Source of the DNA: Chlorobiota bacterium
Lineage (GTDB): Bacteria; Bacteroidota; Bacteroidia; Bacteroidales; JAADGE01
Length of the DNA stretch: 29,226 bases
NCBI GenBank assembly: GCA_030592825.1
Contig: JAUVIG010000001.1
Coordinates: forward strand, 1 to 29,226
Direction of reading: 5' to 3'
This document shows positions 5,596 to 24,904 of the stretch, piece by piece. The translations under genes and the position numbers were made by a program. The notes below the pieces were generated by a model. That model ran no database searches, had not been told where the DNA came from, and saw only the letters and a program-made list of their open reading frames with translations. Position 1 is the stretch's first letter. Each line of letters opens with the position of its first letter.

Positions 5596-5598
5596 GCG

Positions 5599-7888: not shown

Positions 7889-9028
7889 ATGGATTTCAGT
7901 TTTACCGAAGAACAGTTAATGATCAAACAAGCGGCAAGAGATTTTGCACGCACTGAATTACTCCCCGGCGTTATTGAACGCGACGACAATGAAGTTGAAC
8001 CCGTTGAACAAATAAAAAAAATGCAGGAAATGGGATTTATGAGTATGATGGCTGACCCTAAATACGGCGGCGAAGGAATGGATACAATTTCCTATGTTCT
8101 TGCCATGGAGGAAATTTCAAAAATTGATGCCTCCGCATCCGTTGTTATGTCAATACAAAATTCATTGGTAAATTGGGGTTTAGAAACTTATGCAAGTGAG
8201 GAATTAAATCAAAAATATTTAGTGCCTATGGTAAAAGGTGAAGCAATCGGTGCTTTTGCTTTATCAGAGCCGGAAGCCGGTTCTGATGCTACAAAACAAA
8301 GAACAACTGCAATAGAAAAAGATGATCACTATCTTCTTAACGGAACTAAAAACTGGATATCAAACGCCTCTATTGCTGATTATTTCATCGTCATAGCCCA
8401 TACACATCCTGAAAAAGGACACCGAGGCATTAATGCCTTTATAGTAGAAAAAGGTTGTAAAGGTTTTGAAATAGGCCCCAAAGAAAACAAAATGGGTTTA
8501 AGAGGCTCACACACACATTCATTGATGTTTACCGATGTTAAAATTCCTAAAGAAAATCGTATAGGAGAAGACGGCTTTGGTTTCAAGTTCTCCATGATTG
8601 TTCTTAACGGCGGCCGAATTGGTATTGCTGCCCAAGCTCTTGGTATTGCACAAGGAGCATTGGATCTTTCAATCCAATATTCGAAAGAAAGAAAAGCATT
8701 TGGTAAATTAATATCAGAACATCAAGCCATTGCATTTAAATTAGCTGAAATGGAAGTACGAACCGAAGCAGCACGAAACATGATTTATAAAGCTGCTTGG
8801 CTGAAAGACCAACACAAAGATTATAATTTGGCAAGTGCAAGTGCTAAATATATCGCAGCAGAAACCGCTATGTATGTTACTACTGAAGCTGTTCAAATAC
8901 ACGGCGGATACGGTTATGTTAAAGAATACCATGTAGAACGTTTGATGCGCGAAGCCAAACTTACTCAAATTTATGAAGGAACTTCTGAAATACAACAAAT
9001 TGTAATTTCGAGGGAATTGTTGAAATAG
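7889..9028 (+). CDS. Acyl-CoA dehydrogenase (short-chain/butyryl-CoA type)
   Basis: FALSEPEAGSDA, LNGTKNWISN, GGRIGIAAQALG, QIHGGYGY and catalytic IYEGTSEIQ. Confidence 0.95.
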   Translation: MDFSFTEEQLMIKQAARDFARTELLPGVIERDDNEVEPVEQIKKMQEMGFMSMMADPKYGGEGMDTISYVLAMEEISKIDASASVVMSIQNSLVNWGLETYASEELNQKYLVPMVKGEAIGAFALSEPEAGSDATKQRTTAIEKDDHYLLNGTKNWISNASIADYFIVIAHTHPEKGHRGINAFIVEKGCKGFEIGPKENKMGLRGSHTHSLMFTDVKIPKENRIGEDGFGFKFSMIVLNGGRIGIAAQALGIAQGALDLSIQYSKERKAFGKLISEHQAIAFKLAEMEVRTEAARNMIYKAAWLKDQHKDYNLASASAKYIAAETAMYVTTEAVQIHGGYGYVKEYHVERLMREAKLTQIYEGTSEIQQIVISRELLK

Positions 9029-9305: not shown

Positions 9306-9341
9306 AACTAAATATTTAGTTGTATAACTAATATTTTAGTT
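9306..9341. promoter_or_regulatory. Tandem BlaI/MecI-type operators
   Basis: Perfect palindrome AACTAAATATTTAGTT (9306-9321) and near-copy AACTAATATTTTAGTT (9326-9341). ACTA-N6-TAGT spacing matches MecI/BlaI boxes. Abuts the TATCTTTG -7 box at 9343-9350. Confidence 0.8.
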
Positions 9342-9366
9342 GTATCTTTGTCCGAAAGATTTTATA

Positions 9367-9750
9367 ATGAAAGAACTCACAAAATCGGAAGAACAAATTA
9401 TGCAGATTCTTTGGAAAATCAATGAAGGCTTTGTAAAAGATATTATTGAATATTTTCCTGATCCTAAACCTGCTTATAATACAGTTTCTACAATCATCAG
9501 GATTTTAGAAAATAAAAAGTTTATAGATCATAAAGCCTACGGCAGAACGTATCAATATTTTCCTGTTATCAGCAAACAAGATTATACCACAAAGTTCATG
9601 AAAAAGTTCATGAAAAATTATTTCAGCGGTTCTTTCCGACAAATGCTGTCTTTTTTCTCGTCAGAAGAAGAATTGTCAATTAATGAATTAGAAAAATTAA
9701 AAAAAGAAATGGATTTAATAATCCAAAAGAAAAAACAAAATAAATTATAA
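9367..9750 (+). CDS. BlaI/MecI/CopY-family repressor
   Basis: LTKSEEQIMQILW, PAYNTVSTIIRILENKKFI, YFSGSFRQMLSFF. ATG 9367 is preferred over TTG 9340, which lies inside the operator/promoter. Confidence 0.93.
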   Translation: MKELTKSEEQIMQILWKINEGFVKDIIEYFPDPKPAYNTVSTIIRILENKKFIDHKAYGRTYQYFPVISKQDYTTKFMKKFMKNYFSGSFRQMLSFFSSEEELSINELEKLKKEMDLIIQKKKQNKL

Positions 9751-9754
9751 AACT

Positions 9755-10972
9755 ATGGTAAGTTTTTTCAATTATACAATCGAAGTTATTATTTCAATGT
9801 TTCTGTTTTTTACGGTCTGGAAAATATTTTTGCAAAAAGAGACCTTTCACTGCTTGCATAGACTCTTCTTACTAACATCTCTGATTATATCTTTTATAAT
9901 ACCTTCTTTTGAATTTATTTCTCCTGTATCAAATCAACTCGGTTTTTCTGATTATATAACAAACACAATTCAAATTGAAGAAATAATAATCAATCCCTAT
10001 AACGACTCAATTTACCTCATTGATTGGTTAAGCTTATTCTATATTTCAGTTGTATTATTCCTGTTAATCAGGCTTCTGTCCCAACTACGATCTATCAAGA
10101 AATTCGCAAAAAAATGTGAAATTCAAATTTATCAAGAAAAGAAAATCTATATAACAGACAAAGATATTTCTCCGTTCTCGTTTATGAATTATATATTTTT
10201 TAATAAAAATGATATAAAAGGAATAAATTTCAATCGTATATTTCAACATGAACTTATTCATGTAAATCAAAAACATTCTATTGATATTATTTTACTTGAA
10301 TTAGTAATTATTTTTCAGTGGTTTAACCCTATGATATATATCTATCGAAAACATTTGAAAACGCTCCACGAATATTTATCGGACGAAAAAGTTATCCTGC
10401 AGGGCTTTCAAGCCGATGAATATAAAATGCTCTTGATTAAGCAACAAATTGGATTTCAATTTGGATTTGCAAATTATTTTAATAAATCTTTAACATTAAA
10501 ACGAATAAATATGATTAACAAACTTAAATCACATAAAACAGCAAAATTAAAATTATTATTTGCTGTACCTATTCTCGCTTTTACGTTTTTACTATTTTCA
10601 TTTTCAGGAAATAAAAATGAAACATACAATTATAGTGTTTCGGCAACCCAAGATACAATATATGACCAAGCAGATGAAATGCCTGAATTTCCGGGAGGTA
10701 AATTGGCACTCAGAAAATTTTTAGCAGAAAATGTCAAATATCCGGAAATTGCCAAAAAAAACAAAGTAGAAGGTACAGTTTTCATCAAATTTGTTGTTGA
10801 TAAAACCGGGAAAGTAGGCGATGCAGTAATACAAAAAGGCATTTCTGAAAGTATAGATAAAGAAGCTTTGAGAGTTGTTAAAATGCTGCCTCCTTTTAAA
10901 AAACCCGGATATAACAACGGGAAACCTGTTGACGTTTATTTTTCAATCCCAATCACTTTCAGTTTAAAATAA
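9755..10972 (+). CDS. M56 (BlaR1-like) metallopeptidase with C-terminal TonB domain
   Basis: SPFSFMNYIF, HELIHVNQKH (HExxH), WFNP, HEYLSD; C-terminal MPEFPGG...YPEIA...VEGTVFIKFVVDKTG...DKEALRVV. Confidence 0.92.
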   Translation: MVSFFNYTIEVIISMFLFFTVWKIFLQKETFHCLHRLFLLTSLIISFIIPSFEFISPVSNQLGFSDYITNTIQIEEIIINPYNDSIYLIDWLSLFYISVVLFLLIRLLSQLRSIKKFAKKCEIQIYQEKKIYITDKDISPFSFMNYIFFNKNDIKGINFNRIFQHELIHVNQKHSIDIILLELVIIFQWFNPMIYIYRKHLKTLHEYLSDEKVILQGFQADEYKMLLIKQQIGFQFGFANYFNKSLTLKRINMINKLKSHKTAKLKLLFAVPILAFTFLLFSFSGNKNETYNYSVSATQDTIYDQADEMPEFPGGKLALRKFLAENVKYPEIAKKNKVEGTVFIKFVVDKTGKVGDAVIQKGISESIDKEALRVVKMLPPFKKPGYNNGKPVDVYFSIPITFSLK

Positions 10973-10983
10973 AATCAAAATAC

Positions 10984-11007
10984 AGCCCGTAATTGATCTT
11001 ACGGGCT
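10984..11007. terminator. Likely bidirectional terminator between the M56-TonB gene and the orphan dnaN 3' end
   Basis: AGCCCGTAA-ttgatc-TTACGGGCT perfect 9-bp stem with A/T-rich flanks. Confidence 0.8.
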
Positions 11008-11027
11008 ATATTATTCTTTACTTCATG

Positions 11028-11144
11028 CTAATTATTAATCATCATAGGCATTAACAGCATTAAAACATCTTCATTTTCTGAATCCGACTCAAAAGGTAAC
11101 ATTATTCCTGCTTTTGAAGGTTCAGACATTTCAAAAACAACTTC
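11028..11144 (-). pseudogene. dnaN: Orphan copy of the last 39 codons (including stop) of dnaN; attR-like direct repeat
   Basis: Encodes EVVFEMSEPSKAGIMLPFESDSENEDVLMLLMPMMINN*; 112/117 nt identical to 23771-23887. Confidence 0.95.
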
Positions 11145-11262
11145 AACTTATACGAAACTTCACACTTGGCTTGACACTGCCTTGGCAACAATAAACATAA
11201 TTTTGTTTTTTATAAATGATTGAATATCTTTGGTTTTCAGTGTAAAACCAAAACCATCACCG

Positions 11263-14200
11263 ATGAACCTTTTAAAGAAGCTCAAAAACCTCGCTTTACA
11301 AAGATTTATACCTTTAACTTTGTTTTTTTTTCTTTTAAGTTCCGTTCTTTTTGGTCAAAACGAAAAAATGAACAAAAAAACGAAGAAAGCTGATGATTTA
11401 CTTCAAAAGGCATTGGTTTTAAGTGATTCCGCAAAGTATGACAGTGCCATAGTTTTACTGACAGAAGCATCTGCTTTCTACAAAAAGAAAAAGAATAAAG
11501 AAAAGTATATTCATTGTAAAAATGAAATTATTAAACAATCAAGGTATATTAAATTTAATGATGAATTATTAAAACCTGCAAAGGAGAATATTGTTTATTC
11601 AAAGAAAATTTTAGGCAATGAGCATTATCTGACAGGTAATTGTTATAGTTTGTTGGGAAATATTTTTGCAGATATTAATAAAATTGACAGTGCATTGCAT
11701 TATTACAGCAAAGCAAAAGAAATTTGGGAATTGGATAAAAAGAAAAATAAAATGAGAATAGCCGATGCAAATTTAAATATCGGAAATATGCTTAAAAACA
11801 AAGGTGAGTTTGATAAAGCTGCTTCACTAATACACAAGGCATTAAAAACCAAAATTGATTCTCTCGGAAATAATCATCCCGATATTGCTGCTATATATAA
11901 TAGTTTAGGAGTTATGTATTATTATACAGGAGATATTGATTCATGCGCATTCTATTTAATGAAAATGCTGGAGATCAGAAAAAATTATTATGGAGAATCT
12001 CATCCTATAGTAGCAAATGCATATAATAATGTAGGAGTTGCATATAAAGTAAAAGGAGATTATGATAAGGCCCTAACATATTACAAAAAAGCTTTAGATA
12101 TCAGAAAAAAAAGTCTTGGTTTATTACATCCTAATTTGGCATTAAGTTACAGCAATATTGGTGTAATTTATGCAAATCTGGGAAAATATAAACTTGCAAA
12201 CGAATATTACGAAAAGGCATTAAAAATCAGGTTAGAACTTTTTGGTGAAGACCACATAGATGTAGCAGCTTGTTATACTAATATGGGTATTAATTGTATG
12301 GACTGCGGTGAAGGGGGAAGTGCCTTATTATATATACAAAAGGCATTCAAAATAATAATTGAAACATACGGTCAGGATAATCCGAATACATCAAGTGCCT
12401 ATAACAATATGGGGGCTGCTTATGTTTATGGTCTCGGTGATTTAGATAAAGCTTTAAAGTATTTTATAAGAGGCTTGGAACTAAGGCTTAAAACTGATGC
12501 AAATAATCCATTAATTGCAAGCAGCTATAATAATATTGGTGCTGTATATAAAAACAGGGGTGATTACGAACTTGCATTATCTTATTATAAAAACGGACTT
12601 AAAGTTATAAAGGATCAGTTTGGAGAACAACATATTGAGGCAGCTTCTGCATACAATAATATGGGTGAGGCATATTTATTACTAAACGATTTTGAGACAT
12701 CCCGAAAATATTTTGAAAAAGCACTTAATATCAGGTTAGAACTCTTTGGTGATAACTATCCCGGCTTAGCTGAAACATATCTTAATATTGGTACGGTTTA
12801 CAGCAAACTTGGTGAGCTTGAAAAGGAAAAAGAGTGTTATGAAAAAGGACTTGAAATTTGTTTGAAGAACTTTGATGAGAGAAATATCTCTGCTGCAAGA
12901 TTATATCTAAACCTTGCAATGAACGCGGCAGACATGAAAAATTATCATGAGGCAATTTCATTAACAGAAAAAGCTCTCAGCGTTCAAAAAGAAATATATC
13001 CGGAAGATCATCCCGGTATTGCAAAATCTTTGTCAAATTTGGGATTAATATATTATTTATCAGGGAATTATGATTTATCTGCTAATTATTATTTAAAATC
13101 TTTAGATGCAAACTATATCGGGAAACTAACTGACAATTTGGATTATTATTTAATATTGGATGAAATTCAATATCTCGAAACATTATCTGAACTGGCCGAT
13201 TTGTACTTTACGAAATATAAGCTTAAAAATGATATTCCGGCATTAAAAGAAGCGATTTCATATTATCAAAAAGCTTCCGATATGGTTTCTTTTCTGGCAT
13301 CAGGCTATTCTGTTGAAGCATCAAAGATGAATCTGCTTAAAAAGGCTGCCGGTATTTTTCAAAAGGCTTTAATTTCAACTGAAATCCTTTATCGAAATAA
13401 TAAGAATTATAAAAATACAGCAACGGCATTTGGTTTTTCAGAACAAAATAAGTCTTCTGTTTTATATGAATCAATAATAAGAAGTAATATTAAAACTGAA
13501 AACACATCGGACAGTTTGTGGGTTTTGCAACTGAATTTATCAGGAAAGATAAATTATTTAAAAACCAAGTTTTTGGCAGATGAGAATGATTCCCTCAATT
13601 TGCAAGCTAATAATGAGCATGATGCAGAACTCTCAAAAGCAATTATTGATTACCAAAGTGTTACAGAAGATATTCAATCAAGAAAACAGAATGCTCAGTA
13701 TGTTGTTTTCTATAAACAAACTTTGATTGATTCTATTCAAGCTAATCTAAAGCCCGTCGAATTAATGCTTGAATATTTTATTTCAGATTCAGCAGTTTAT
13801 TGTTTTGTTATCGGAAAACAAATCTTGGAGTTGGAAAAAGTAAATATTGAACCGGAATTTAAGGGTAGATTATTTGACTATATAACAAGCATAAAAAAAC
13901 ATCGCTTTTCTCAATTTCAGGAAAACAGTTACTACCTTTATAATAAATTGATTAAACCTGTTGAAAAATATTTTACAGATAAATCAAAACTAATTATTAT
14001 TCCTGACGACTATTTATTATACCTTCCTTTTAGTTCACTTATTTCACAAAAGCAAAATGATAATCAGATTATTAATTTTTCAAAATTGGATTACCTGATT
14101 AAGGATTACGAAATCGTATATCAATATTCGGCAAATTTATGGCTTGAAAATTTTCAAACAGGACAAATTAACAATACAACAAAAGGTTTTTTCGGTATTG

Positions 14201-14934
14201 CACCCTTTTCTACAAACGAAATTGTCAGCGAAATTGACAGTACAAATTTAAGTTTTTTAGATAAGGCACTTCCGGAAAGTGTATTGCGAAATATCACAAA
14301 CAGCAAGAATGAATATAAATCATTACCATATTCCGGTAAAGAAATAAATAGTATTGCAAAATTATTTGAGTTACAAGGTATTAGTACAAAAAATCTTATT
14401 GACACTGATGCATCTGAAAAAAATCTAAAGACCTTTGCTAAAGATTTTAAATACCTTCATATTGCTACTCACGGTATTATAAATAATATTCATCCTGAAT
14501 TAAGCGGATTAGTATTTATTAATGATAATAATGTGAGTAAAGATAAGGAACCGGACAATAAAACCAAACAAAGTTGGAAATTAGAACAAAATACGGATGG
14601 GATTTTGTATGCAAAAGAAATATTTGATTTGGACTTAAATGCTGAATTAGTAGTTTTAAGTGCCTGCGAAACCGGTATTGGTAAACTTGAAAAAGGAGAA
14701 GGTGTTATTTCACTGACAAGGGGATTTTTATACAACCGGGTACCAAATGTTGTTTTCTCTTTATGGAAAATCAACGATAAAAACGCCTGCGATTTAATGA
14801 CCGACTTTTACAGTAATATTTTGCAGGGCAAATCCTATGCTTCTGCACTTAGACACGCAAAGCTTAATATGATCAGTAATAAAGAAACTGCCTATCCGGG
14901 AAATTGGGCGGCTTTTTCTTTGATTGGGAAATAA
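11263..14934 (+). CDS. TPR-repeat CHAT-domain (caspase/HetF-like) protease, probably exported
   Basis: Signal-like FIPLTLFFFLLSSVLFG; roughly a dozen about-42-aa TPRs (HPDIAAIYNSLG-type); intact dyad motifs LHIATHG and VLSACETG; terminal PGNWAAFSLIG. ATG 11263 is preferred over TTG 11230 because TATCTTTG lies at about 11225-11232. Confidence 0.93.
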   Translation: MNLLKKLKNLALQRFIPLTLFFFLLSSVLFGQNEKMNKKTKKADDLLQKALVLSDSAKYDSAIVLLTEASAFYKKKKNKEKYIHCKNEIIKQSRYIKFNDELLKPAKENIVYSKKILGNEHYLTGNCYSLLGNIFADINKIDSALHYYSKAKEIWELDKKKNKMRIADANLNIGNMLKNKGEFDKAASLIHKALKTKIDSLGNNHPDIAAIYNSLGVMYYYTGDIDSCAFYLMKMLEIRKNYYGESHPIVANAYNNVGVAYKVKGDYDKALTYYKKALDIRKKSLGLLHPNLALSYSNIGVIYANLGKYKLANEYYEKALKIRLELFGEDHIDVAACYTNMGINCMDCGEGGSALLYIQKAFKIIIETYGQDNPNTSSAYNNMGAAYVYGLGDLDKALKYFIRGLELRLKTDANNPLIASSYNNIGAVYKNRGDYELALSYYKNGLKVIKDQFGEQHIEAASAYNNMGEAYLLLNDFETSRKYFEKALNIRLELFGDNYPGLAETYLNIGTVYSKLGELEKEKECYEKGLEICLKNFDERNISAARLYLNLAMNAADMKNYHEAISLTEKALSVQKEIYPEDHPGIAKSLSNLGLIYYLSGNYDLSANYYLKSLDANYIGKLTDNLDYYLILDEIQYLETLSELADLYFTKYKLKNDIPALKEAISYYQKASDMVSFLASGYSVEASKMNLLKKAAGIFQKALISTEILYRNNKNYKNTATAFGFSEQNKSSVLYESIIRSNIKTENTSDSLWVLQLNLSGKINYLKTKFLADENDSLNLQANNEHDAELSKAIIDYQSVTEDIQSRKQNAQYVVFYKQTLIDSIQANLKPVELMLEYFISDSAVYCFVIGKQILELEKVNIEPEFKGRLFDYITSIKKHRFSQFQENSYYLYNKLIKPVEKYFTDKSKLIIIPDDYLLYLPFSSLISQKQNDNQIINFSKLDYLIKDYEIVYQYSANLWLENFQTGQINNTTKGFFGIAPFSTNEIVSEIDSTNLSFLDKALPESVLRNITNSKNEYKSLPYSGKEINSIAKLFELQGISTKNLIDTDASEKNLKTFAKDFKYLHIATHGIINNIHPELSGLVFINDNNVSKDKEPDNKTKQSWKLEQNTDGILYAKEIFDLDLNAELVVLSACETGIGKLEKGEGVISLTRGFLYNRVPNVVFSLWKINDKNACDLMTDFYSNILQGKSYASALRHAKLNMISNKETAYPGNWAAFSLIGK

Positions 14935-14941
14935 ACCGATA

Positions 14942-15120
14942 AAATTATTTAATGAATATCCGTATACTCCCCCATAGTTCATTAAACAGATTGGAAATCA
15001 ATTTGTTTACCCCAAACCCTAAAGGGAGCAAATTGATTTTCTTCACACCCTTTAGGGATTGGGGTAAATGAAGAAAATCAATCATTAAAGTGGAGTATAC
15101 GGATATTCATTAAATAATTT
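14942..15120. repeat. 179-bp nested inverted-repeat element (MITE- or REPIN-like)
   Basis: Perfect 29-bp terminal IR (14942-14970/15092-15120) enclosing a 21-bp IR with one mismatch (15006-15026/15048-15068) and shorter IRs. Confidence 0.85.
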
Positions 15121-15189
15121 ATTGCCAATACAAAATATTTGTCTATATTTGCACTTAATTCCGAAATTATCCAACTAATTAGTAACAGT

Positions 15190-16350
15190 ATGCAAAATAT
15201 AGACAGAATTTTGAGTATTGAACTTCCAAAAAATCAATCAGCATTTTTATGGGGGCCAAGGAAAACCGGAAAAACAACCTTATTAAAAACCAAATTTCCG
15301 CAAAGCATTGTTTATGATTTTCTCCAAACTGATTTATTTTTTAATTTTTTAAAAAAGCCTTCACTATTACGTGAACAATTGCTTGCAAAAAACGGGAAGC
15401 TATTGAATTCCCCTATAATTCTTGATGAAGTACAGAAAGTTCCTCAAGTTCTTGACGAGGTTCATTGGTTGATTGAAAATAAGGGAATGCGCTTTATATT
15501 ATGCGGTTCAAGTGCAAGAAAACTCAAAAGAGGACGAGCAAATATGCTTGGAGGGCGTGCGTGGCGGTATGAAATGTTTCCGTTAGTAACTGCAGAACTC
15601 GAAAATTGGGATTTATTAACAATCCTAAACAGAGGCTTAATACCGGCACATTACCAACAAAAAAATTACAAAAAATCATTACGTTCATATACACAGGATT
15701 ATATGAAAGAAGAAGTATTTGATGAGGGCTTAACACGTAATATTCCGGCATTTTCAAAATTTTTTGATTCTGTTGGTTATTCTCACAGTGAACTAATAAA
15801 TTATTCAAATATCTCTCGAGATTGCGGGATAAATTCAAAAACCGTGAGAGAGTATTACCAAATACTTGTTGATACATTAATGGGGCGTTTTGTTGAACCT
15901 TTCAAAAAGCAACAGAACAGACAGGTAATAACCAAGGCACCTAAATTCTATCTGTTTGATGTTGGTGTCGCAGGAGCAATCTCAAAACGTGTTTTAGAAG
16001 AAGAAAAGGGTGAATTGTTTGGAAAAGCATTTGAACACTTTATATTAATGGAAATTACTGCCTATAATTCATATAAAGAAATTGACTTTGAAATAAACTT
16101 TTGGCGAACAAAATCCGGTTTGGAAGTAGATTTTATTCTTGGCAACGGTGAAGTGGCAATTGAAGTTAAAGGAACAAACCGTGTTGATAATAAAAGTTTA
16201 AAACCCATTGAAACATTCATTGAAGAATATTCACCTGAAAAAGCTTTTGTTGTATGCAATGAAACAGAAGAAAGACTTAAAGGGAAGGTTCGCATAATAC
16301 CTTACAGGAAATTCCTGTCTTCGTTATGGGAAGGTGAGATAATTAAATAA
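15190..16350 (+). CDS. AAA_14-type ATPase with DUF4143 / PD-(D/E)xK-like C-terminus
   Basis: Walker A GPRKTGKT, Walker B IILDEVQ, CGSSA, PKFYLFDVG, EVDFI...AIEVK. ATG 15190 is preferred because TATATTTG lies at 15144-15151. Confidence 0.9.
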   Translation: MQNIDRILSIELPKNQSAFLWGPRKTGKTTLLKTKFPQSIVYDFLQTDLFFNFLKKPSLLREQLLAKNGKLLNSPIILDEVQKVPQVLDEVHWLIENKGMRFILCGSSARKLKRGRANMLGGRAWRYEMFPLVTAELENWDLLTILNRGLIPAHYQQKNYKKSLRSYTQDYMKEEVFDEGLTRNIPAFSKFFDSVGYSHSELINYSNISRDCGINSKTVREYYQILVDTLMGRFVEPFKKQQNRQVITKAPKFYLFDVGVAGAISKRVLEEEKGELFGKAFEHFILMEITAYNSYKEIDFEINFWRTKSGLEVDFILGNGEVAIEVKGTNRVDNKSLKPIETFIEEYSPEKAFVVCNETEERLKGKVRIIPYRKFLSSLWEGEIIK

Positions 16351-16391
16351 ATTTGTTCATGCAAAAATACAAATAAAAAAAAGTAAACTTC

Positions 16392-16421
16392 TTTGTAACG
16401 ATTTTTAATTTCCGGACATAT
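16392..16421 (+). promoter_or_regulatory. Putative ECF sigma promoter TTTGTAAC-N16-ACATAT
   Basis: Same motif and spacing as upstream of the sigma gene (23671-23700). Confidence 0.6.
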
Positions 16422-16488
16422 CAGTATAAATTTGCATGATTTCCTACTTGCAAAACTTTTTATTTTTATAACTCAAAAATTAAAGAAA

Positions 16489-17253
16489 ATGAAATCAAAA
16501 GGCATTCTGTTTAAAAACATAAGCAAAATAAGTTATCTGTTTTTTATAATAATTGTTATATTTTCATCGTGTAAAAAGGATGAAAATATTGAGCCTGTGC
16601 AAATTTCTGATTTAAGCGGATTTTGGATTATTTCAGAAACTATTACAGGTAATTGCCATGGAAGTGTTGAAACTGAACAAAAAACAGAAATATTTTCAAT
16701 TTATCAGCAAGACAGCAAGTTGACAATAACAATTTATCCTAACGGTGATATTCTTAAAGGAACTGTTGAAGGGGATAAAATCTCATGGGAGGGCACAATT
16801 CCTACCGTCAGCGGTAAAACGGATATTGATTTTACAGGTACTGCAACAAACAACGGAAATCAAGCTGCAGGAACTGCAAGTTGGGAATGGAACTCGGATA
16901 CATACAATTGCTCCGGCACTACAAAAATATCAGGCGAAAAGGTGATTCAAGAAACAGCCGATTTTTCAGGTGAATGGGAAGGGACTTGGAAAAGTGAGGA
17001 AAATTCGGCTGACGGAACATTTTCAGCAAATGTTACTCAAAATGACACAATATTAAGCGGGACTATAGATGTTCCCTTTTTAGATATATCAAATGCAAGT
17101 TTAAAAGGATTTGTGTCAGGTAATGTTGTTTTTTTTGGTGACATAGAAGAAAAAATAAAATTTGTCGGCATTATGAATGAGAATACAGGTGAAGGCACAT
17201 ACAGCTATATGTCTTTAAGCGATGAGGGTAGTTGGACAGGCACAAAACAATAA
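16489..17253 (+). CDS. Surface lipoprotein with two tandem beta-rich domains
   Basis: Lipobox IFSS-C followed by KKDE; internal repeat DLSGFWI.../DFSGEWE...; ATG 16489 is preferred. Confidence 0.8.
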   Translation: MKSKGILFKNISKISYLFFIIIVIFSSCKKDENIEPVQISDLSGFWIISETITGNCHGSVETEQKTEIFSIYQQDSKLTITIYPNGDILKGTVEGDKISWEGTIPTVSGKTDIDFTGTATNNGNQAAGTASWEWNSDTYNCSGTTKISGEKVIQETADFSGEWEGTWKSEENSADGTFSANVTQNDTILSGTIDVPFLDISNASLKGFVSGNVVFFGDIEEKIKFVGIMNENTGEGTYSYMSLSDEGSWTGTKQ

Positions 17254-17281
17254 ACTTAAATATAAATAAAAAATTTAAATT

Positions 17282-17875
17282 ATGAATCTATTTCTAAAAA
17301 TTCCGGCAAATAATAAAACCAAACAAATGACCATGAAAACTTTATCTGTTCTGTTTATTTCAATGATATTTATCCACCTTGTAAACGGACAAGCAAAGGA
17401 GATTCCAAACAAGAAAAACAATGTTTTTATTCTATTAAACAATCATCTTGAAAAGAGAGGAAGTGAGAATTATTATACTTCCAATCCCGACTTTTCAGTT
17501 GGGTATGAGAGAGACCTTTTTGGTTTTGGTAAAAATCGGTTTTATGCCGGTATAAGAACAGGTGCTTATAAGGAATATGTTCTCACCGGTTATGGCTGGA
17601 GTCATCCGGAAAAAACCAGATTTTTCATAGGCCTTTCTCCCTCATACGTGCTTAATATTTCTAAAAAATTCAGGTTACAAGTAAATCTGCTTTATGATGT
17701 GTTACTACCTGATGATTATGATGAGATTTGGTCTTATTGGGCAGTTGAACCGTCATTTCAGTATTTCGTCAAGAATTTCTATGTCGGTATTTCTGCTGCA
17801 ACAGGTGTTTTCCTTTTCTTCGATCCAAAAGCCTATATGGATAAAGCAGGATTAAAGCTTGGATACCAGTTCTGA
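17282..17875 (+). CDS. Secreted protein, probable small outer-membrane beta-barrel
   Basis: Signal peptide from M at 17327 or 17333 (MKTLSVLFISMIFIHLVNG); alternating aromatic strands; C-terminal LKLGYQF. Confidence 0.65.
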   Translation: MNLFLKIPANNKTKQMTMKTLSVLFISMIFIHLVNGQAKEIPNKKNNVFILLNNHLEKRGSENYYTSNPDFSVGYERDLFGFGKNRFYAGIRTGAYKEYVLTGYGWSHPEKTRFFIGLSPSYVLNISKKFRLQVNLLYDVLLPDDYDEIWSYWAVEPSFQYFVKNFYVGISAATGVFLFFDPKAYMDKAGLKLGYQF

Positions 17876-17969
17876 TAAATACAAATATCAATAAGGACTA
17901 AGTTTATTCCTGAATATTTTAATGGTACAAAACAATAAATTTTAAAGGTAATTTTAAAAAAATTTAATT

Positions 17970-19187
17970 GTGAACCAATTTCTAAAAAATATATTTACTA
18001 TCATTTTTGTAGTCGTTTTTATAATTTCTTGCAAAAAAGATGAACCGGAAATTCACGAAGATCCTATTGTTTATGATGAAACAGGAATGTTGGGATTGGC
18101 GGATTCACCTTGGCCTTGCGACGGACATGATTCACGAAGGACATCACAAAGTCCGTATAACGGACCAAGCAACGTAAATGCAATAATGATTTATGATTCA
18201 TCACCCGGATTTCATACATCTGATGCAACATCACCGGCAATTGATGCTTCCGGAAATTTATTCTGCATGGCATGGACACGTGTTTTAAAGTTTTCAAGTA
18301 ATCATGATTTTGAATGGGAAAACGGAACAGGTTTATATTTGAGGAATATTCCGCCCATAGCAAAAGACGGAACAATTTATATAGGCGGATTTTATCAGCA
18401 ATCTGTTACAAATTTCACGACCGGATTAATTATAGCTTTAGATCAATCAAATAACACTAAATGGGAGTTTAAAACACCGGACGAATATGACGGCGGAATT
18501 TGGGGTGCTTTAGCTATAGGCTCAAACGGAACAATATATACAGTTGATGCATCAGACGGTTTATTTGCAATAAATAAACAAGGTAAAAAACTTTGGTCTT
18601 ATCAACCTGACAGATTAACTTGTTCATCACCGGCAATTGCCCCCGACGGAACTATTTATGTTATTGATTCTGATGACAATCTGTACGCAATAAAACCCGA
18701 AGGAGAGCTTTTATGGAAATACTCTGCAGGTAAAGATATTAATTATGATCCTGTTACAGGAATTGACGGCACAGTTTATATAGGAACTGAAAATTCATTA
18801 CTGGCAGTCGACAAAATCGGTGACAAATTATGGGAATATAATTTACCGGATGCTGCAATAAATCGGCCATCTTTGGCAAATGACGGTACTATTATTATTG
18901 CCTGTGCCGATAATAATATTTATGCAATAAACTCTGACGGAAGTCTTAAGTGGAATTACAACACCAACGGAAATGTTACAAGCCCTACAACTATTGATGC
19001 TGCAGGCAGTATATATTTCGGTACAAAGCCGGATTCCGCAAAAATCATATCTATATCAAACCAAGGCCAACTTTTATGGGAGTATCCCTTGTGGTTAGGC
19101 TATGTCCAACCGGTTATCGGAGCTGACGGAACATTGTACGTTGGTACAGCAGAAGGTAAAATTTATGCACTAACTGAAACCAAATAA
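17970..19187 (+). CDS. Lipoprotein with PQQ-binding-like beta-propeller repeats
   Basis: GTG start; lipobox IIS-C followed by KKDE; SPWPCDGHDSRRT; repeated SSPAIAPDGTIY...LYAI...G..LWKY. Confidence 0.85.
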   Translation: MNQFLKNIFTIIFVVVFIISCKKDEPEIHEDPIVYDETGMLGLADSPWPCDGHDSRRTSQSPYNGPSNVNAIMIYDSSPGFHTSDATSPAIDASGNLFCMAWTRVLKFSSNHDFEWENGTGLYLRNIPPIAKDGTIYIGGFYQQSVTNFTTGLIIALDQSNNTKWEFKTPDEYDGGIWGALAIGSNGTIYTVDASDGLFAINKQGKKLWSYQPDRLTCSSPAIAPDGTIYVIDSDDNLYAIKPEGELLWKYSAGKDINYDPVTGIDGTVYIGTENSLLAVDKIGDKLWEYNLPDAAINRPSLANDGTIIIACADNNIYAINSDGSLKWNYNTNGNVTSPTTIDAAGSIYFGTKPDSAKIISISNQGQLLWEYPLWLGYVQPVIGADGTLYVGTAEGKIYALTETK

Positions 19188-19220
19188 AAAAATAATTCAA
19201 TAACTTTTAAAAAAAAAATA

Positions 19221-19901
19221 ATGACTAAAAAAATACATATCAGAATTATCAAGCTCACTTTATTAACATTAATCCCTTTTTCAATCTTTTCGCAGGATTT
19301 AAAGGATAAAAAAATCGAATTTTCAATAACCGGAGGTGCATTATTACCCGGGAAAGTACAAGGTTCTTATGAATCGGACTATAATCCTGATTCTACAGTT
19401 ACTATTACTAATAAAGTATCGCCTTTAATAAAATTTGTTACAGATTTTAACATATTACCATATTTATCAGTCGGTATAAATGTAAATTTTGCAAAATTCA
19501 ACATCAATGATATTTTATACAAAGATGAATCTATGAAGGAAGGTAACGAGGTTAGTTTAGGTTACTGGGACGACAGAGAACATATAATTCCTTTGGATGA
19601 TATTAAGATGCTTGAAACAAATGTATCTGTTAAAGGACGTTTTATTTTAACTGATAAGATTGTGATTAAACCATGTGTGTATCTGGGTTACAGAAAAACC
19701 TTTTCGAGCAGCCCGGATGCAAGGGAAAAGGGCTTGGTCTTAAATTATAATATTGAATATCAGTATTATTTCAAAACAAACCATTTTTTAACAGCAGATC
19801 TCGGTATTTTTTCTCAACCTTACGGAGGTGTGACTCATGTGGCACATGTTCGCTCATTTGGGGTGCCTTATATTACAATAGGTTATGGATTTGCAATTTA
19901 A
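19221..19901 (+). CDS. Secreted protein, probable outer-membrane beta-barrel
   Basis: Signal peptide ending FSIFS|Q; strand-like pattern; C-terminal YITIGYGFAI. Confidence 0.6.
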   Translation: MTKKIHIRIIKLTLLTLIPFSIFSQDLKDKKIEFSITGGALLPGKVQGSYESDYNPDSTVTITNKVSPLIKFVTDFNILPYLSVGINVNFAKFNINDILYKDESMKEGNEVSLGYWDDREHIIPLDDIKMLETNVSVKGRFILTDKIVIKPCVYLGYRKTFSSSPDAREKGLVLNYNIEYQYYFKTNHFLTADLGIFSQPYGGVTHVAHVRSFGVPYITIGYGFAI

Positions 19902-20043
19902 ACAAAAATCTAAATACTTCATTTTCCTTTTTATGATTGTATTTGTGTTTTTAGGAATCTTAATAAACTGTGCATTGAGATCATTGAGAATTGACGGTGA
20001 TTTAATTCATACTTTTGATTATTTGTAAGCTAAAAATAAACTT

Positions 20044-22035
20044 ATGAAATACATGGCAAACATAAATATAAGAAATTCTTTTTTGCTAATCCTGTTCTTT
20101 TCTGTAACAATATTTTTATTGCCTAAAAACGTTATTGCCGATGATTCTATAAGAATTGAGTTAGATGAAATATTGTTTTTTGAATCCGGAAATGATGTTC
20201 CCGATAAAAAAGACAGAAAATATATTAATCATTTTAAACCCGAAACACAATATATTAATGTTGAATTAAACATTAAAAACCTGAATTATAAAAAAGAAGA
20301 TAAAGAATATAAAATAACATTTATTTGGAACTATTTAAACGGAGACGAATTTGGAAGATCAGAGGCGACATTTAATGTGAAATCAGAATGGTCAACTGCT
20401 TATATAAACCGGGGTTGGGGATTTACCGATAAAGGAAATTGGCGACTTGGCAGATACACGGCTAAAATACTTATTAACGACAGCCTCTTAGCAGAAAAAG
20501 ACTTTTTTATTACCAAATTTGATGAGGATTTTATTTCACTTCCGGAAGATAATAAAGTCATTGAAAACCTACAGAATATTTCTTCAGATATCAAGTACAA
20601 AATCCTGCATCAGTATAAAATAGTACCGCAACCATATTTTAATTATTTTTATGATATTAATTTCAGTGAAGACGGGAAAGATATCGCATATTCTATTGCT
20701 AATTATGAACATCAAAATGCCACTTCATATTCGGGTTCTTCAACATCAAGAGATATGCTCTTATTCAAAAATAACAAACAAATAATTCCGAATTATTTTA
20801 TGATACGAGCCGATTTTGATAAAAATCTTAAAAACTTAACTTATTTCGGATTAAAACTTAAAACTTCTGATATAAAGGATGCTGAAGGAAACGGTTATTA
20901 TAACGGATTGCAATTGTATAACAATACATACTATATCCCGTTAGATATAAGTCCCGACAATAAAAAACATATATATATACTGAATACGATGCCCATATTG
21001 AAATCTTCATTCACATGGGACAATGCCTACGAATTTTTAATGATAAACAATAAAAAAACACAAGCAGAACACTTAAAAACTGCAAAATCAATAAGAATTA
21101 CTAAATCTACCCAATCAATATTCTCTCGAACAAATTCAATAGTATTTATTAAAAATTCGGATAATTCCTATAATGCATTATATACGGCAAAATACAAGTT
21201 TGACAATCAGGCTCATTATGCATTATTTAACGAAGCAAAAAGAATTTCACCACAATTTGACGGCTACATCAGTATACCCTATTTATCTCCTGATGAAAAA
21301 AATGTTGCATACATTGTAAAGGATAAAAAAGAGTGGTTTGTAATGATTAATGATAAAAAAATAACAAAAGGATACAAAGAAATTAAAGCGTCAAAAGCAT
21401 TAAACAACGTAAAAAACGAAATAGTTTTTTGTAAGCAAGGGAAAAATGTTATTTACCAAGCTAAAATAAAAGGCGATTGGTATGTAATGAAAGGCGATGA
21501 AATAATATCCGACGGTTTTTCAAAAATTGAATTAATTACAGTGAATCCTGCCGGAGACAAGATTGCTTATATTGCAAAATCCGGAAAGACTTGGAGTGCA
21601 TATATTAATAAAAGAAGAATTTCAGAAGAATTTGATCGTTTTGGGAAAGAAATCAAATTCAGCCCCGACGGTAATAATATTGCTTATGCAGCAGGAACTG
21701 AAGACAGTATGTTTGTAATGATAAACAATTGTAAAGTATCATCAAATTTTAAAATTCAATATCAAAACTCATTATACATGGGAAAACAACCGCTTGCAAT
21801 CACTAATCTTACATTTAACAAAACAGGTGATAAGCTTGCATATATAGTTATTTTTGAGTATTCCGGAGAAGAATATGTGGACAAAATGAAACATTCTTAT
21901 ATCATGATTAATGATGCTCGGATTTCACCCAAAATGTACAATGCATCAATACACTCAAATAAACCGGGTGAATTATTTTATGCAGGAATAGATATTTCTG
22001 ATTTAATTCTTCATCATGTTAAGATTGAATTTTAA
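20044..22035 (+). CDS. Secreted protein: N-terminal Ig-like domain plus TolB/PD40-like beta-propeller
   Basis: Signal peptide; ...GNWRLGRYTAKILINDSLLAEKDF; blades FSEDGKDIAY, ISPDNKKHIY, LSPDEKNVAY, VNPAGDKIAY, FSPDGNNIAY, FNKTGDKLAY. Confidence 0.65.
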   Translation: MKYMANINIRNSFLLILFFSVTIFLLPKNVIADDSIRIELDEILFFESGNDVPDKKDRKYINHFKPETQYINVELNIKNLNYKKEDKEYKITFIWNYLNGDEFGRSEATFNVKSEWSTAYINRGWGFTDKGNWRLGRYTAKILINDSLLAEKDFFITKFDEDFISLPEDNKVIENLQNISSDIKYKILHQYKIVPQPYFNYFYDINFSEDGKDIAYSIANYEHQNATSYSGSSTSRDMLLFKNNKQIIPNYFMIRADFDKNLKNLTYFGLKLKTSDIKDAEGNGYYNGLQLYNNTYYIPLDISPDNKKHIYILNTMPILKSSFTWDNAYEFLMINNKKTQAEHLKTAKSIRITKSTQSIFSRTNSIVFIKNSDNSYNALYTAKYKFDNQAHYALFNEAKRISPQFDGYISIPYLSPDEKNVAYIVKDKKEWFVMINDKKITKGYKEIKASKALNNVKNEIVFCKQGKNVIYQAKIKGDWYVMKGDEIISDGFSKIELITVNPAGDKIAYIAKSGKTWSAYINKRRISEEFDRFGKEIKFSPDGNNIAYAAGTEDSMFVMINNCKVSSNFKIQYQNSLYMGKQPLAITNLTFNKTGDKLAYIVIFEYSGEEYVDKMKHSYIMINDARISPKMYNASIHSNKPGELFYAGIDISDLILHHVKIEF

Positions 22036-22044
22036 GAAACGACT

Positions 22045-22800
22045 TTAGTTCCTGATTATAAATTTGCCCGTAAATACTGATTCTTCTGTAGTTTCCAATT
22101 GCCAGTAATAAAGACCGGGTTTAAGTTTTTGTTCAAAAAGGTAAGTAGTATCAATTTGCTTTTCGAATATGATATTTGCTTTATTATCAAAAACTATGAA
22201 ATTAAGTGAATCAAAATCTGCTGATTCCCATCTGATTTTGATAATCTCATTCGGTTTAAATTTATAATTAAATTTCGGAGACAAAACTTCAAGATTTCCG
22301 GCTCTTACAGAATTTTCTATAAAATTTTCAAATTCAGGCATAATTTTGTATGCTTCTGCTAATAGATTTGTGTTTTTTTCATATTCATCATTAAATTCTT
22401 TGTTTATGATAGTCGAATCTTCTTTTTTGAATGTAATTGTATCAATATTTTCGGATTTTAATGATACAACATTTTTTCCAATTTTATTTTTATCTGATAA
22501 TAAAATGCCTAACCATGTTATTGAAACAAGAACTAATAATGTAGCCGCAATTTTTAGTAAAAAAGAAAAGTTGATTACAGGCTTCTTGCTTGTTTTTGGA
22601 ATTGCAAATTTATTTTGATTGATTTCTTTCGGTAACTCATTCCTGATAATACCGATTATTGCTTTTCTTTTTTCCAGTGTATCCATACATTCATCGCAAA
22701 ACAAAAGATGTTCTTCCAGTCCGTTTTCTTCCTCTTCTGTTAATTGATTAAGTAAGTACTTGTCAATTAAATCGTTATTTATAATATCATTATGATTCAT
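22045..22800 (-). CDS. Zinc-binding (zf-HC2-like) transmembrane anti-sigma factor
   Basis: IDKYLLNQL...EEHLLFCDEC (HxxxCxxC), a single TM helix, and a C-terminal Ig-like domain (LKPGLYYWQL); 18 bp downstream of the sigma gene. Confidence 0.85.
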   Translation of the reverse strand: MNHNDIINNDLIDKYLLNQLTEEEENGLEEHLLFCDECMDTLEKRKAIIGIIRNELPKEINQNKFAIPKTSKKPVINFSFLLKIAATLLVLVSITWLGILLSDKNKIGKNVVSLKSENIDTITFKKEDSTIINKEFNDEYEKNTNLLAEAYKIMPEFENFIENSVRAGNLEVLSPKFNYKFKPNEIIKIRWESADFDSLNFIVFDNKANIIFEKQIDTTYLFEQKLKPGLYYWQLETTEESVFTGKFIIRN

Positions 22801-22818
22801 ATCTTAACAATCAGCATT

Positions 22819-23655
22819 TTAAATGTAACCGTGCAGTCGTGCCGGTTTTTCAAGTTTTGCAAGTGCTCTGTGTTTGATAACTCTGCAATTTACTTCTGTA
22901 ATATTTAATTTTTCAGCAATATTTTTAAGTTTTTCCTCTTTAAAGAATACTTCAAAAAGTATATTTTTTTCTGACTCGTTTAAATCTTTAAATAAGTTAG
23001 ATATAAATTTTTCTTTATCTGATTCCGGTATATACTGATCATAATTATCAAAATAATCCGGTTCAAAATCATTAGTATTAAAAAAGAGATTCTTTTTCTT
23101 TTCTCTGTAATATTCAAAGAGTTTTAAGTTAATTATTTTAAAAATATATGATTTTAATAATCCGGAGTCCTTAAAAAAAAGTTCATTTTTTTGTAATTTG
23201 TTTAGAAAAACAACTTGCGCTTCCTGATAAAATTGTTCCTGCAGTTCAATATCTGAAAAACCTTTTTTTATAAGCCAGAATTTAATTCTTCTTTTTAATA
23301 ATATATCAAAAGTCAACCATACTTTTTTATCATTTCTATATAATAAATCAAAATAGTTTTGAAACAGCCTTGGAATTTTTTCATTTGCTTTCGATATTAT
23401 AAAATCTTTATATTCTGAGAAAGTACTTATTGTTTCCTGTCTGTAAGTTATTTTTTGTATTATATCCGAAAATAAATCATCAAATAATACTTTTCGGCTG
23501 CAAATTTCATCCTTTCCGGCTATCCAATCAAGTTCAATATATTTTTTAGAGAAATACCGGGAAACAACTATCTTCAAGTTATTCTTCACTATAGAAATCG
23601 CTTTCTTTTCACCTAAAGTTAGATTATTAATCAGCTCTTTAAATTTATCATGCAT
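22819..23655 (-). CDS. ECF-type sigma factor with an N-terminal extra sigma2-like domain
   Basis: sigma2 FYQEAQVVFLNKL...LKSYIFKIIN; sigma4 LNESEKNIL...LKNIAEKLNITEVNCRVIKHRALAKL; about 95 extra N-terminal residues. Confidence 0.85.
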   Translation of the reverse strand: MHDKFKELINNLTLGEKKAISIVKNNLKIVVSRYFSKKYIELDWIAGKDEICSRKVLFDDLFSDIIQKITYRQETISTFSEYKDFIISKANEKIPRLFQNYFDLLYRNDKKVWLTFDILLKRRIKFWLIKKGFSDIELQEQFYQEAQVVFLNKLQKNELFFKDSGLLKSYIFKIINLKLFEYYREKKKNLFFNTNDFEPDYFDNYDQYIPESDKEKFISNLFKDLNESEKNILFEVFFKEEKLKNIAEKLNITEVNCRVIKHRALAKLEKPARLHGYI

Positions 23656-23670
23656 CCCTTTATATTTATG

Positions 23671-23700
23671 AGATGTAAAAAATCACTCAAATGTTACAAA
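23671..23700 (-). promoter_or_regulatory. Putative autoregulatory ECF promoter TTTGTAAC-N16-ACATCT
   Basis: Ends 15 nt before the sigma ATG; matches 16392-16421. Confidence 0.65.
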
Positions 23701-23716
23701 AAATATGTAAATAAAC

Positions 23717-23750
23717 AAAAAGCCTGCAAGAATTTTCAAACAGGCTTTTT
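23717..23750 (-). terminator. Intrinsic terminator downstream of intact dnaN
   Basis: AAAAAGCCTG...CAGGCTTTTT 10-bp stem with T/A runs on both sides. Confidence 0.8.
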
Positions 23751-23770
23751 TATAATATCTTCAATAACAA

Positions 23771-24904
23771 TTAATTATTAATCATCATCGGCATTAACAG
23801 CATTAAAACATCTTCATTTTCTGAGTCCGACTCAAAAGGTAACATAATTCCTGCTTTTGAAGGATCAGACATTTCAAAAACAACTTCTTCCGAACCGATA
23901 TTTTGAAGTATCTCCGATAAGAAAACAGATTTAAAACCAATTTCCATATCATCGCCTTCGTACTGACATACTAAACGTTCATGTGCAGAAATTGAAAAAT
24001 CAATATCTTGTGCCGAAACTATTATTTCATTTGCCGTAAAATGTAATTTTATCAAATTGCTTGCCTGATTTGAGAAAACTGATACACGTTTCACAGTATT
24101 GTAAAGATCAGACCTGTTAATAATTAATTTATTAGGGTTTTCAGTAGGTATAACTGACGCATAGTTAGGGTATTTCCCTTCTGTTAATCGGCATATTAAT
24201 TTAAAACCGAGAAACGTGAATACAGCATTTTTTTCATCAAACTCAATAGATACTACCTCATCAACCAATCCGACAAGTAAACCTTTTAATAAATTAGCAG
24301 GTTTCTTCGGCAATATAAAAGATGAATCCTTATCGGCATTTCCGTCGGTTCTTTTGTATCTTACAAGCTTATGCGAATCAGATGCAACGAATGTAATATC
24401 TTCCTTTGTCATTGAAAAAAATATCCCGTTCATAACAGGCCTTAACTCATCATTTGCAGTTGCAAAAACGGATTTGTTAATACCGCTGTCCAAAAGTTTT
24501 GCATCCAATTTGAATTTCACGGATGTATCTTCGGACAATTCCGGAGCTTGAGGATATTCGTCAGCAGGAGAACCGACTACACTGAACTTTCCGTTTTCAG
24601 AAAGTATATTTACAGATAAAGTTTCAGAATCAATCTCAAAAGTCAGAGGTTGTTCCGGAAACTCTTTTAAAATATCTAACAAACGTTTTGCTTCCAGAGC
24701 AATTTTTCCTGAACCTTCACTATTCTCAATGCTTAGCTTTGTAATTAATGTAGATTCTAAATCTGATGCAGTTATGGTTAATTCTCCTGTATCAAGATCG
24801 AAAAGGAAACTGTCGAGTATCGGAATTGTAGATTTTCCGCTGATTGCTTTACTTACACTTAGCATATGTGAAAGTAATTCTGAACTGGAAACAATAAATT
24901 TCAT
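23771..24904 (-). CDS. dnaN: DNA polymerase III beta sliding clamp
   Basis: PILDSFLF, ASDLE, ELRPVMNG, VASDSHKL, GKYPNY, IGFKSVFL, LLMPMM. Confidence 0.97.
   Translation of the reverse strand: MKFIVSSSELLSHMLSVSKAISGKSTIPILDSFLFDLDTGELTITASDLESTLITKLSIENSEGSGKIALEAKRLLDILKEFPEQPLTFEIDSETLSVNILSENGKFSVVGSPADEYPQAPELSEDTSVKFKLDAKLLDSGINKSVFATANDELRPVMNGIFFSMTKEDITFVASDSHKLVRYKRTDGNADKDSSFILPKKPANLLKGLLVGLVDEVVSIEFDEKNAVFTFLGFKLICRLTEGKYPNYASVIPTENPNKLIINRSDLYNTVKRVSVFSNQASNLIKLHFTANEIIVSAQDIDFSISAHERLVCQYEGDDMEIGFKSVFLSEILQNIGSEEVVFEMSDPSKAGIMLPFESDSENEDVLMLLMPMMINN

Follow-up and report, generated by a model that had tools for sequence, protein, structure and literature searches.

The window analysed here, a stretch of 29,226 nt from the Bacteroidales metagenome-assembled genome of a Chlorobiota bacterium (assembly GCA_030592825.1, contig JAUVIG010000001.1, our C48), carries the last 39 codons of the essential beta-clamp gene dnaN twice: once as the end of the intact gene and once as an orphaned tail, with a 12.6-kb block of signalling genes between the two copies. 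An earlier note on this DNA, made from the sequence alone, had read the block as an integrative element that uses dnaN as its attachment site. Our analysis points elsewhere: the dnaN tail does not look like the attachment site of a new mobile element, and we consider it somewhat more likely than not that the orphan tail is a scar left where close haplotypes recombined at a synteny breakpoint, homologously on one side and illegitimately on the other, while selection preserved an intact dnaN. The genome holding the window (G000; 4.18 Mb, 655 contigs, N50 7.9 kb) was compared with G009, a separately assembled genome of a sister species in the same genus (dnaN 99% identical, DNA 93–96% identical across the locus), with G002 of the same genus, with G024 and G019 of other genera, and with contigs or loci of related lineages (L081, L082, L085, L086, and L088). 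The features on which the argument turns are the following.

10979–11012, bidirectional: terminator hairpin term2, AGCCCGTAA...TTACGGGCT, which follows both the orphan tail and the M56-TonB gene and is kept in G009 and L081.
11028–11144, minus strand: orphan dnaN tail (T2), the last 38 codons plus the stop codon, decaying and with no upstream reading frame.
23722–23770, minus strand: term1, dnaN's own terminator region, AAAAAAGCCTG...CAGGC, outside the gene cluster and missing from L081 and L086.
23771–24904, minus strand: intact dnaN, 377 aa, with all three beta-clamp domains (Pfam), 99% identical in G009 and 80–85% in congeners.

The segment 11028–11144 is a direct repeat of 23771–23887 (T1, the functional copy, which forms the last 39 codons of the intact gene), matching it at 112 of 117 nt with five mismatches and no indels over 39 codons including the stop; alignment tools return 116 nt at 96.6–97% identity, with a BLAST E value of about 1e-51 within the window. 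The earlier note had described both this repeat and the abrupt end of its homology at one codon boundary, and both are confirmed, the boundary lying at 11144/23887; at the other end the repeat stops within 1 nt of the stop codon. The mismatches fall at 11028, 11046, 11082, 11103, and 11121 and delimit perfect blocks of 17, 35, 20, 17, and 23 nt, of which the 35-nt block is the longest, and not, as had been stated, the 23-nt block at the junction. Because longer perfect blocks exist and the junction block carries a mismatch in G009, it lacks the signature of a "core" sequence. Two copies of the tail, and no more, are present in the whole assembly, with 12.7 kb from the orphan to the intact gene, and no further decayed tails of dnaN or of the neighboring acyl-CoA dehydrogenase (ACAD) gene, which would be a sign of stepwise accretion, were found in the window. 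The terminators that follow the two tails are unrelated hairpins, predicted to fold at −20.6 kcal/mol (z −5.7) for term2 and −17.4 kcal/mol (z −4.2) for term1.

Each difference between the tails was polarized using its counterpart in G009. Both tails of G000 end in MMINN*, an ending common to G000 and G009 only; in other congeners the tails have diverged much further and terminate in INS or ING. Only two of the 117 positions, CCG/CCT and TAA/TAG, part both orphans from both functional copies; of the remaining differences between the G000 tails, one is a synonymous change in the functional gene and two are changes in the orphan after the split from G009. The repeat itself predates that split, before which the tails were about 98% identical. 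Because so few differences are older than the split and the MMINN* ending is shared, the source of the second tail was the same or a sibling lineage rather than an element with a long independent history. The mismatches at third codon positions were also considered as proof of two working alleles; this was rejected, as only two differences can be allelic after polarization. In G009, the stop codon of the orphan is gone, and first and second positions of its codons have also changed. The orphans of the two species differ at 6 of 117 positions, a value equal to the local genome-wide divergence; the orphan tail is thus a neutrally decaying remnant. At tail position 64 (codon 22), both G000 copies read TCA and both G009 copies ACA, a pattern that suggests gene conversion between the repeats, 12.7 kb apart, after the species had split.

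It should be noted that a duplicated gene end could also be produced by assembly, if two haplotypes downstream of dnaN had been joined through their shared tail into a strain-chimeric contig. Such a chimera would not be out of place in a fragmented assembly of 655 contigs, and both in metagenome run X1 and in G009 some contigs do end at the repeat or close to it. However, the independent assembly of G009 reconstructs this junction with 5% divergence, its contigs C99 and C71 overlapping by exactly 55 nt of block DNA and tail across the orphan-tail/block junction. Metagenome evidence was drawn from Logan contigs of four runs, which are too short to bridge the repeat, and from word depth in run X1; this depth is even, at about 12–24x from ACAD to dnaN, save for peaks at the duplicated tail (34x) and at a palindromic repeat (about 14737–15303; 90x). 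Moreover, the differences of the orphan are decay mutations rather than strain alleles, and an orphaned tail is seen independently in L081. We therefore regard a chimera as highly improbable; the earlier note had named misassembly as an outcome that would overturn it, and on this point the structure stands.

The flank beyond the orphan tail places the duplication in its genomic context.

7889–9028, plus strand: ACAD (Pfam), the ancestral neighbor of the dnaN 3′ end.
9340–10972, plus strand: BlaI-like repressor (9340–9750) and M56/TonB_C membrane protein (9755–10972; Pfam), between ACAD and the orphan tail.

In G002, G024, and G019, ACAD lies directly next to dnaN in convergent orientation, and ACAD is the ancestral neighbor of the dnaN 3′ end. 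Because of this adjacency, the BlaI/M56-TonB pair is itself lineage-specific: it does not occupy this position in G002 and has 58%-identical copies elsewhere in G014 and G011, whereas G009 and L081 keep it together with ACAD and the orphan tail. What follows the dnaN stop codon differs widely among 14 congeners, with at least six unrelated contexts, and the region downstream of dnaN is a synteny breakpoint in the genus. The homology between the tails stops at the stop codon, where the synteny of all congeners also breaks, and this speaks for recombination as the origin of the scar.

A search of 40 relatives with the DnaN protein recovered an orphan tail in G009 only; the survey of relatives proposed in the earlier note thus yielded one sister species sharing the junction and nothing in the other 39. 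A wider survey of 401 genomes of the order with the PF02768 profile was uninformative, as it missed the 39-codon orphan of G000 itself, and the few double PF02768 matches that were checked proved to be full-length paralogues or noise. No genome, metagenome contig, or collection scan yielded the empty site (M56-TonB, term2, and a full dnaN), the sampling of closest strains being thin. A full dnaN beside the terminator at 10984, as the note had predicted, stands in no relative or metagenome contig, and wherever term2 is seen (G000, G009, and L081) it follows an orphan tail. Among the Logan contigs of the four runs (contigs only) there was no clean joint from 11144 to 23888. One joint, from 11060 to 23919, was examined as an empty site and rejected, its short side of 34 nt stopping at the stop codon and its skip being 115 nt too long; it fits the dnaN of a relative. 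A scan of metagenome contigs for M56-TonB returned only one distant locus, and nothing useful came of looking up the exact dnaN and BlaI proteins.

To interrogate the block for mobility functions, all its open reading frames (ORFs) were scanned against Pfam, NCBIfam, and PHROGs. None matched an integrase, resolvase, transposase, excisionase, relaxase, or phage function, and no plasmid or transfer genes were found in these profile scans; nor did the block match plasmid and phage records. Six-frame, stop-tolerant profile searches with PF00589 (tyrosine) and PF00239 (serine) detected no recombinase remnants on contig C48, and with the largest intergenic gap of the block at 204 nt, there is no room for one. 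Recombinases are likewise missing from the segments that G009 alone possesses, and five congeners showed no integrase next to dnaN. Elsewhere in G000, there are 16 tyrosine-recombinase matches on other contigs and no serine recombinase. The composition of the block is the host's own: its GC content is 30.7% against 29–32% in the flanks, and its tetranucleotide correlation with the flanks (r = 0.988) exceeds that of one flank with the other.

These results bear on the reading nearest to the earlier note, a decayed or trans-mobilized site-specific island, which would have integrated from dnaN codon 339 on, restored the gene with a 3′ end that it carried along, and stranded the native tail, its integrase being since deleted or encoded elsewhere. 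Such an island would account for the restored gene, the direct repeats, and a native-looking tail and terminator on the far side, as seen with e14 and phage 21 at icd; islands adjacent to dnaN do exist in Streptococcus pneumoniae, the tyrosine-recombinase matches on other contigs could supply a recombinase, and the 3′-end bias of further orphan-tail loci (below) is integrase-like. We nevertheless consider it unlikely, as two species lack any recombinase remnant or mobility gene in a block of native composition, the gene cluster occurs elsewhere without a tail, and its edge at 23721, as seen in L081 and L086, excludes T1 and term1. In addition, the 39 other relatives have no orphan tail, the near identity of lineage-specific tails at their origin is unexpected for an independently evolving element, and seven loci would each need a separate and precisely erased integrase. 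Direct repeats and a reconstituted gene are thus found here, but a recombinase, an empty site, and a tail that travels with the element are not. What survives of the claimed insertion into dnaN is that some event restored an essential gene at its end and that, with respect to the ancestral dnaN/ACAD adjacency, the block is an insertion; its attribution to an integrative element with a dnaN attachment site is not supported.

The cluster edge that enters this argument was defined by comparison of the block with related loci. The block comprises the following features.

11145–11229, plus strand: junction and region upstream of the TPR-CHAT gene, 84 of 85 nt identical in G009; 11145–11189 is not common to the L088 locus.
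11230–14934, plus strand: TPR-CHAT protein, 1234 aa (Pfam CHAT 2.6e-56, multiple TPR families), with orthologues in G009 (92%), L088 (78%), and L085 (60%).
14942–15120, no strand assigned: palindromic repeat of 179 nt, resembling a miniature inverted-repeat transposable element (MITE), with perfect 29-nt terminal inverted repeats.
15139–16350, plus strand: AAA_14/DUF4143 ATPase (Pfam), internally deleted in G009 and missing from the L085 cluster.
16432–22035, plus strand: five cluster genes, unk273, unk197, a PQQ-like beta-propeller (17970–19187), unk226, and unk663 (20044–22035; Pfam/NCBIfam).
22045–22800, minus strand: zf-HC2 anti-sigma factor, 251 aa (Pfam zf-HC2, 22.9 bits against a cut-off of 22.2).
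22819–23655, minus strand: sigma-70 family factor resembling the extracytoplasmic function (ECF) type, 278 aa (Sigma70_r4; TIGR02937, 43.6 bits against a cut-off of 42.9), with an N-terminal extension of about 130 aa.
23656–23721, minus strand: sigma promoter region and true sigma-side edge of the cluster, 66 nt kept in L081 and L086, where it abuts the ACAD upstream region.

From these matches, the block appears to be an ECF-like sigma/anti-sigma module combined with a CHAT protein in a conserved cluster; the profile scores of sigma and anti-sigma factor both barely exceed their cut-offs. In L085, from a distant member of the Bacteroidales whose sigma factor is 46% identical, the TPR-CHAT, unk273-like, propeller, unk663, unk226, DUF2569, anti-sigma, and sigma genes follow in the same order, including the stretch unk273-propeller-unk663-unk226, and adjoin thioredoxin-like and amidohydrolase genes, with no dnaN. 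The anti-sigma gene always comes after the sigma gene in L081, L082, L085, and L086. Homologues of unk663 with 60–72% identity occur in three further unrelated contexts; among 25 genomes of the family, unk663 is confined to G000 and G009. The cluster is thus a regular chromosomal unit that takes up other positions in related Bacteroidales, and the dnaN tail is missing from it in L085, L081, L086, and L088.

L081 and L086, which share 93% identity, were each recovered from a different, independent sample and encode a sigma factor 77% identical to that of the window. In both, the 66-nt sigma promoter region is fused to the ACAD upstream region (L081:3643–3805; L086:494–655), joining 23721 to 7792 with neither T1 nor the 49 nt of term1 that lie between the dnaN stop codon and 23721. 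Because both are missing at this edge, the functional tail and term1 are not part of the cluster. L081 further keeps BlaI, a shortened M56-TonB, term2, and a remnant of the orphan tail, about 36 nt long and in the same CCT and TAG states. Unrelated DNA flanks this stretch, so that the orphaning of the tail can be separated from the placement of the cluster. In L088, a second TPR-CHAT gene precedes the TPR-CHAT orthologue, and the locus matches the window only from 11190 onward. At 11178, contigs of run X1 part from the window sequence, and one contig of G009 ends at about 11177, which suggests strain variants with something else after the tail.

The joint in L081 and L086 also raises the possibility of an intrachromosomal rearrangement, in which a tandem duplication, or an excision and reinsertion, of the ACAD–tail–cluster segment in permuted order would have copied the tail, with deletions following later. 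The joint 23721|7792 is the one expected from a circularized or tandemly duplicated window segment 7792–23721, and the near identity of the tails at their origin and the native composition are consistent with such an event. It would however need at least three events, and it leaves unexplained both why unrelated terminators begin at the first base after each stop codon and where the 49-nt term1, with its resemblance to the dnaN terminator of G002, came from, so we regard it as quite unlikely to be the origin of the scar. The joint does show that the clade underwent at least one more rearrangement, in which the ACAD block and the cluster were permuted.

Recombination between haplotypes, the reading we prefer, would have proceeded as follows. 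One haplotype would have carried dnaN, term2, M56-TonB, BlaI, and ACAD, and the other dnaN, term1, and the sigma/anti-sigma/TPR-CHAT cluster; an exchange would have joined both downstream regions in series, with one side homologous (within dnaN or ACAD) and the other illegitimate, at the abrupt joint 11144/11145. The route could have been homology-facilitated illegitimate recombination (HFIR) or the Campbell-type insertion of a circular fragment by a single crossover. The C-terminus of the beta clamp includes conserved residues of the MPM pocket, and under selection on it only products with one complete dnaN would survive, leaving an intact gene and a stranded tail, which would then decay neutrally. 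Two features of the locus agree with such a scar: the anchor that was duplicated belongs to the lineage of the resident gene and hardly differs from it, and the other joint is abrupt, with no conserved motif or inverted repeat. Both the mechanism and which of the tails was resident are matters we infer. The stem and A-run of term1 resemble the dnaN terminator of G002 and that of no other congener, a likeness (an 11-nt A-run plus the stem) that is suggestive only; it suggests that, of the two ends, the one now functional may be older, in which case the polarity of the earlier note, where the native tail was the one pushed to the far side, would be reversed.

Several observations weigh against this account. 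Neither a donor or recipient haplotype nor an empty site was recovered, and the mechanism is deduced from its product alone, whose architecture is exactly what an integrase of the e14/phage-21 type would leave. The genome is a fragmented assembly, and the tyrosine recombinases matched on its other contigs might act in trans. L081 and L086 show that the history involved more than one rearrangement, and tail position 64, the same within each species yet differing between them, needs gene conversion or a more complex history. Finally, the orphan-tail loci described below favor gene 3′ ends, with six such cases against one at a 5′ end, which random recombination does not obviously predict.

The layout invites comparison with known systems. 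The element e14 and phage 21 insert into icd of Escherichia coli by their own tyrosine integrase at an attachment site, excise, and carry phage genes. The dnaN locus resembles them in the insertion at the 3′ end of a housekeeping gene, the substitute end, the displaced fragment of the native tail, and an imperfect repeat of more than 100 nt; it differs in having no recombinase, excision, or phage function, and a cargo that is a native-looking chromosomal cluster. In common with cis-mobilizable elements and decayed tandem islands at gene 3′ ends, it has an integrase-less cargo bracketed by a duplicated gene tail, but a related integrase-bearing element at the same site was not found among 40 genomes or in metagenome contigs, nor an integrase beside dnaN in five congeners. 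HFIR and Campbell-type events are reportedly known from laboratory transformation studies in Acinetobacter, S. pneumoniae, and Pseudomonas stutzeri, where they span a few kilobases and usually come with a deletion in the recipient. The window shares with them one homologous and one illegitimate joint, a close donor, a duplicated anchor stretch, and no dedicated recombinase; unlike them, it holds a fixed natural insertion of 12.6 kb in an essential gene, inherited by two species. The earlier note knew of no described element targeting dnaN; islands adjacent to dnaN are in fact known in the form of PRCI_dnaN of S. pneumoniae, a phage-related chromosomal island that encodes int, regulatory, and replication genes, has measurable attB, attL, and attP, and excises (10.1101/2022.03.07.483185; 10.1101/2025.03.18.643841). 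Both cases place accessory DNA at the dnaN locus, but that island belongs to another phylum, and a siting inside the dnaN 3′ end is not stated in either report (10.1101/2022.03.07.483185; 10.1101/2025.03.18.643841).

As a landmark for islands, dnaN is thus not new; we would place the present case among gene-tail duplication scars flanking acquired DNA. A self-mobile element docking at dnaN would have added an essential replication gene to the attachment sites in Bacteroidota, and the evidence is against it. What the locus documents is a natural rebuilding of the end of an essential gene during the gain of a 12.6-kb signalling cluster, and it cautions that the layout of a restored gene plus a stranded tail, as in e14, can arise without any integrase.

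Such scars may be common in the lineage. Comparison of the fragmented G000 assembly with itself revealed six more loci with a second, ORF-less copy of an intact ORF's 3′ end, which lies 0.7–4.7 kb downstream at 89–96% identity, a small cassette separating the copies.

pheT (essential): cassette with a VapBC-like PIN pair.
Thioredoxin-like gene: cassette with a PIN_2 pair.
Unknown 338-aa gene: cassette with an AbiEi-like gene.
TonB-dependent receptor gene: cassette with an ECF sigma factor and a FecR anti-sigma factor.
MazG gene: cassette with an ECF sigma factor and two ORFs.
S4-domain gene: cassette with an AraC regulator and a TonB-dependent receptor.

The repeats of these loci (L055–L060) lie on contigs C476 (2494–2625/3305–3434), C484 (1006–1168/2027–2189), C652 (7137–7195/4922–4980), C203 (6662–6722/5661–5721), C213 (8793–8975/4060–4241), and C178 (4034–4144/6004–6114). 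The majority of the repeats run up to the stop codon or to within a few codons of it, and the orphan keeps its own nearby stop. There is no tyrosine recombinase on the six contigs and no junction motif common to the seven loci (including dnaN). A single mobile sigma family at the three loci with sigma factors was considered and rejected, since two of these are 37% identical and that of the dnaN locus is unrelated. At pheT, G009 has a different toxin–antitoxin pair between the same functional and orphan tails, 74 aa plus 119 aa (L062, G009:C81) in place of 85 aa plus PIN in G000 (L055:2400–3560), so that the cassette appears to have been swapped or the site reused. A conserved promoter-like stretch was also noted right after the pheT stop codon. 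G009 shares the case at the receptor gene and is without the MazG orphan.

A bolder reading of these loci is that orphan-tail insertion is a regular, possibly dedicated, way of gaining cassettes in this marine-sediment lineage of the Bacteroidales, by an undescribed recombinase-independent or trans-acting capture with gene ends as docking homology; the recurrence, the 3′-end preference, and the exchanged pheT cassette would fit it, and we regard it as a distinctly doubtful proposal. All seven loci would be miscalled by pipelines that rely on duplicated gene ends alone to infer integrative elements, and within a genome this fragmented, the recurrent orphan tails are the lead most worth following up.

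The block is still undergoing remodeling, as judged from its differences in G009. There, a DUF2569 gene lies between unk226 and unk663 (L028:7316–7915, C71) and unk197 is absent, and an extra 2 kb with ORFs of 164 and 376 aa separates ACAD from BlaI (L029:1839–3917, C99). The AAA_14/DUF4143 ATPase gene is probably a secondary addition. The 179-nt MITE-like repeat next to it reaches about five times the local depth in four metagenome runs and has at least three near-full copies in the genome, with near-full copies on contigs C500 and C159 and fragments on C318 and C343. L088 (L088:1–6815) encodes three tandem TPR-CHAT paralogues, comprising the C-terminal end of one and copies 78% and 62% identical to the protein of the window.

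A few further observations concern the surroundings of the locus. At 4741–7656 of the window, genes for a LytTR regulator and an unknown 606-aa protein are inserted between an ABC-2 permease gene and ACAD when compared with G002 and G024, a gain specific to the lineage. G000 and G009 are also larger (4.2–5.0 Mb) than their congeners (1.8–3.3 Mb). The first and last 127 nt of contig C277 of G000 (4239 nt) are identical, and it may be a circular element of 4.1 kb or a long repeat-protein gene wrapping around the contig end. Matches to term2 in a collection scan were set aside as coincidence, being unrelated terminators of Segetibacter: in three metagenome-assembled genomes (L089–L091), a letter-identical 24-nt copy of the hairpin serves as a terminator beside a tRNA gene, which appears to be a case of convergence.

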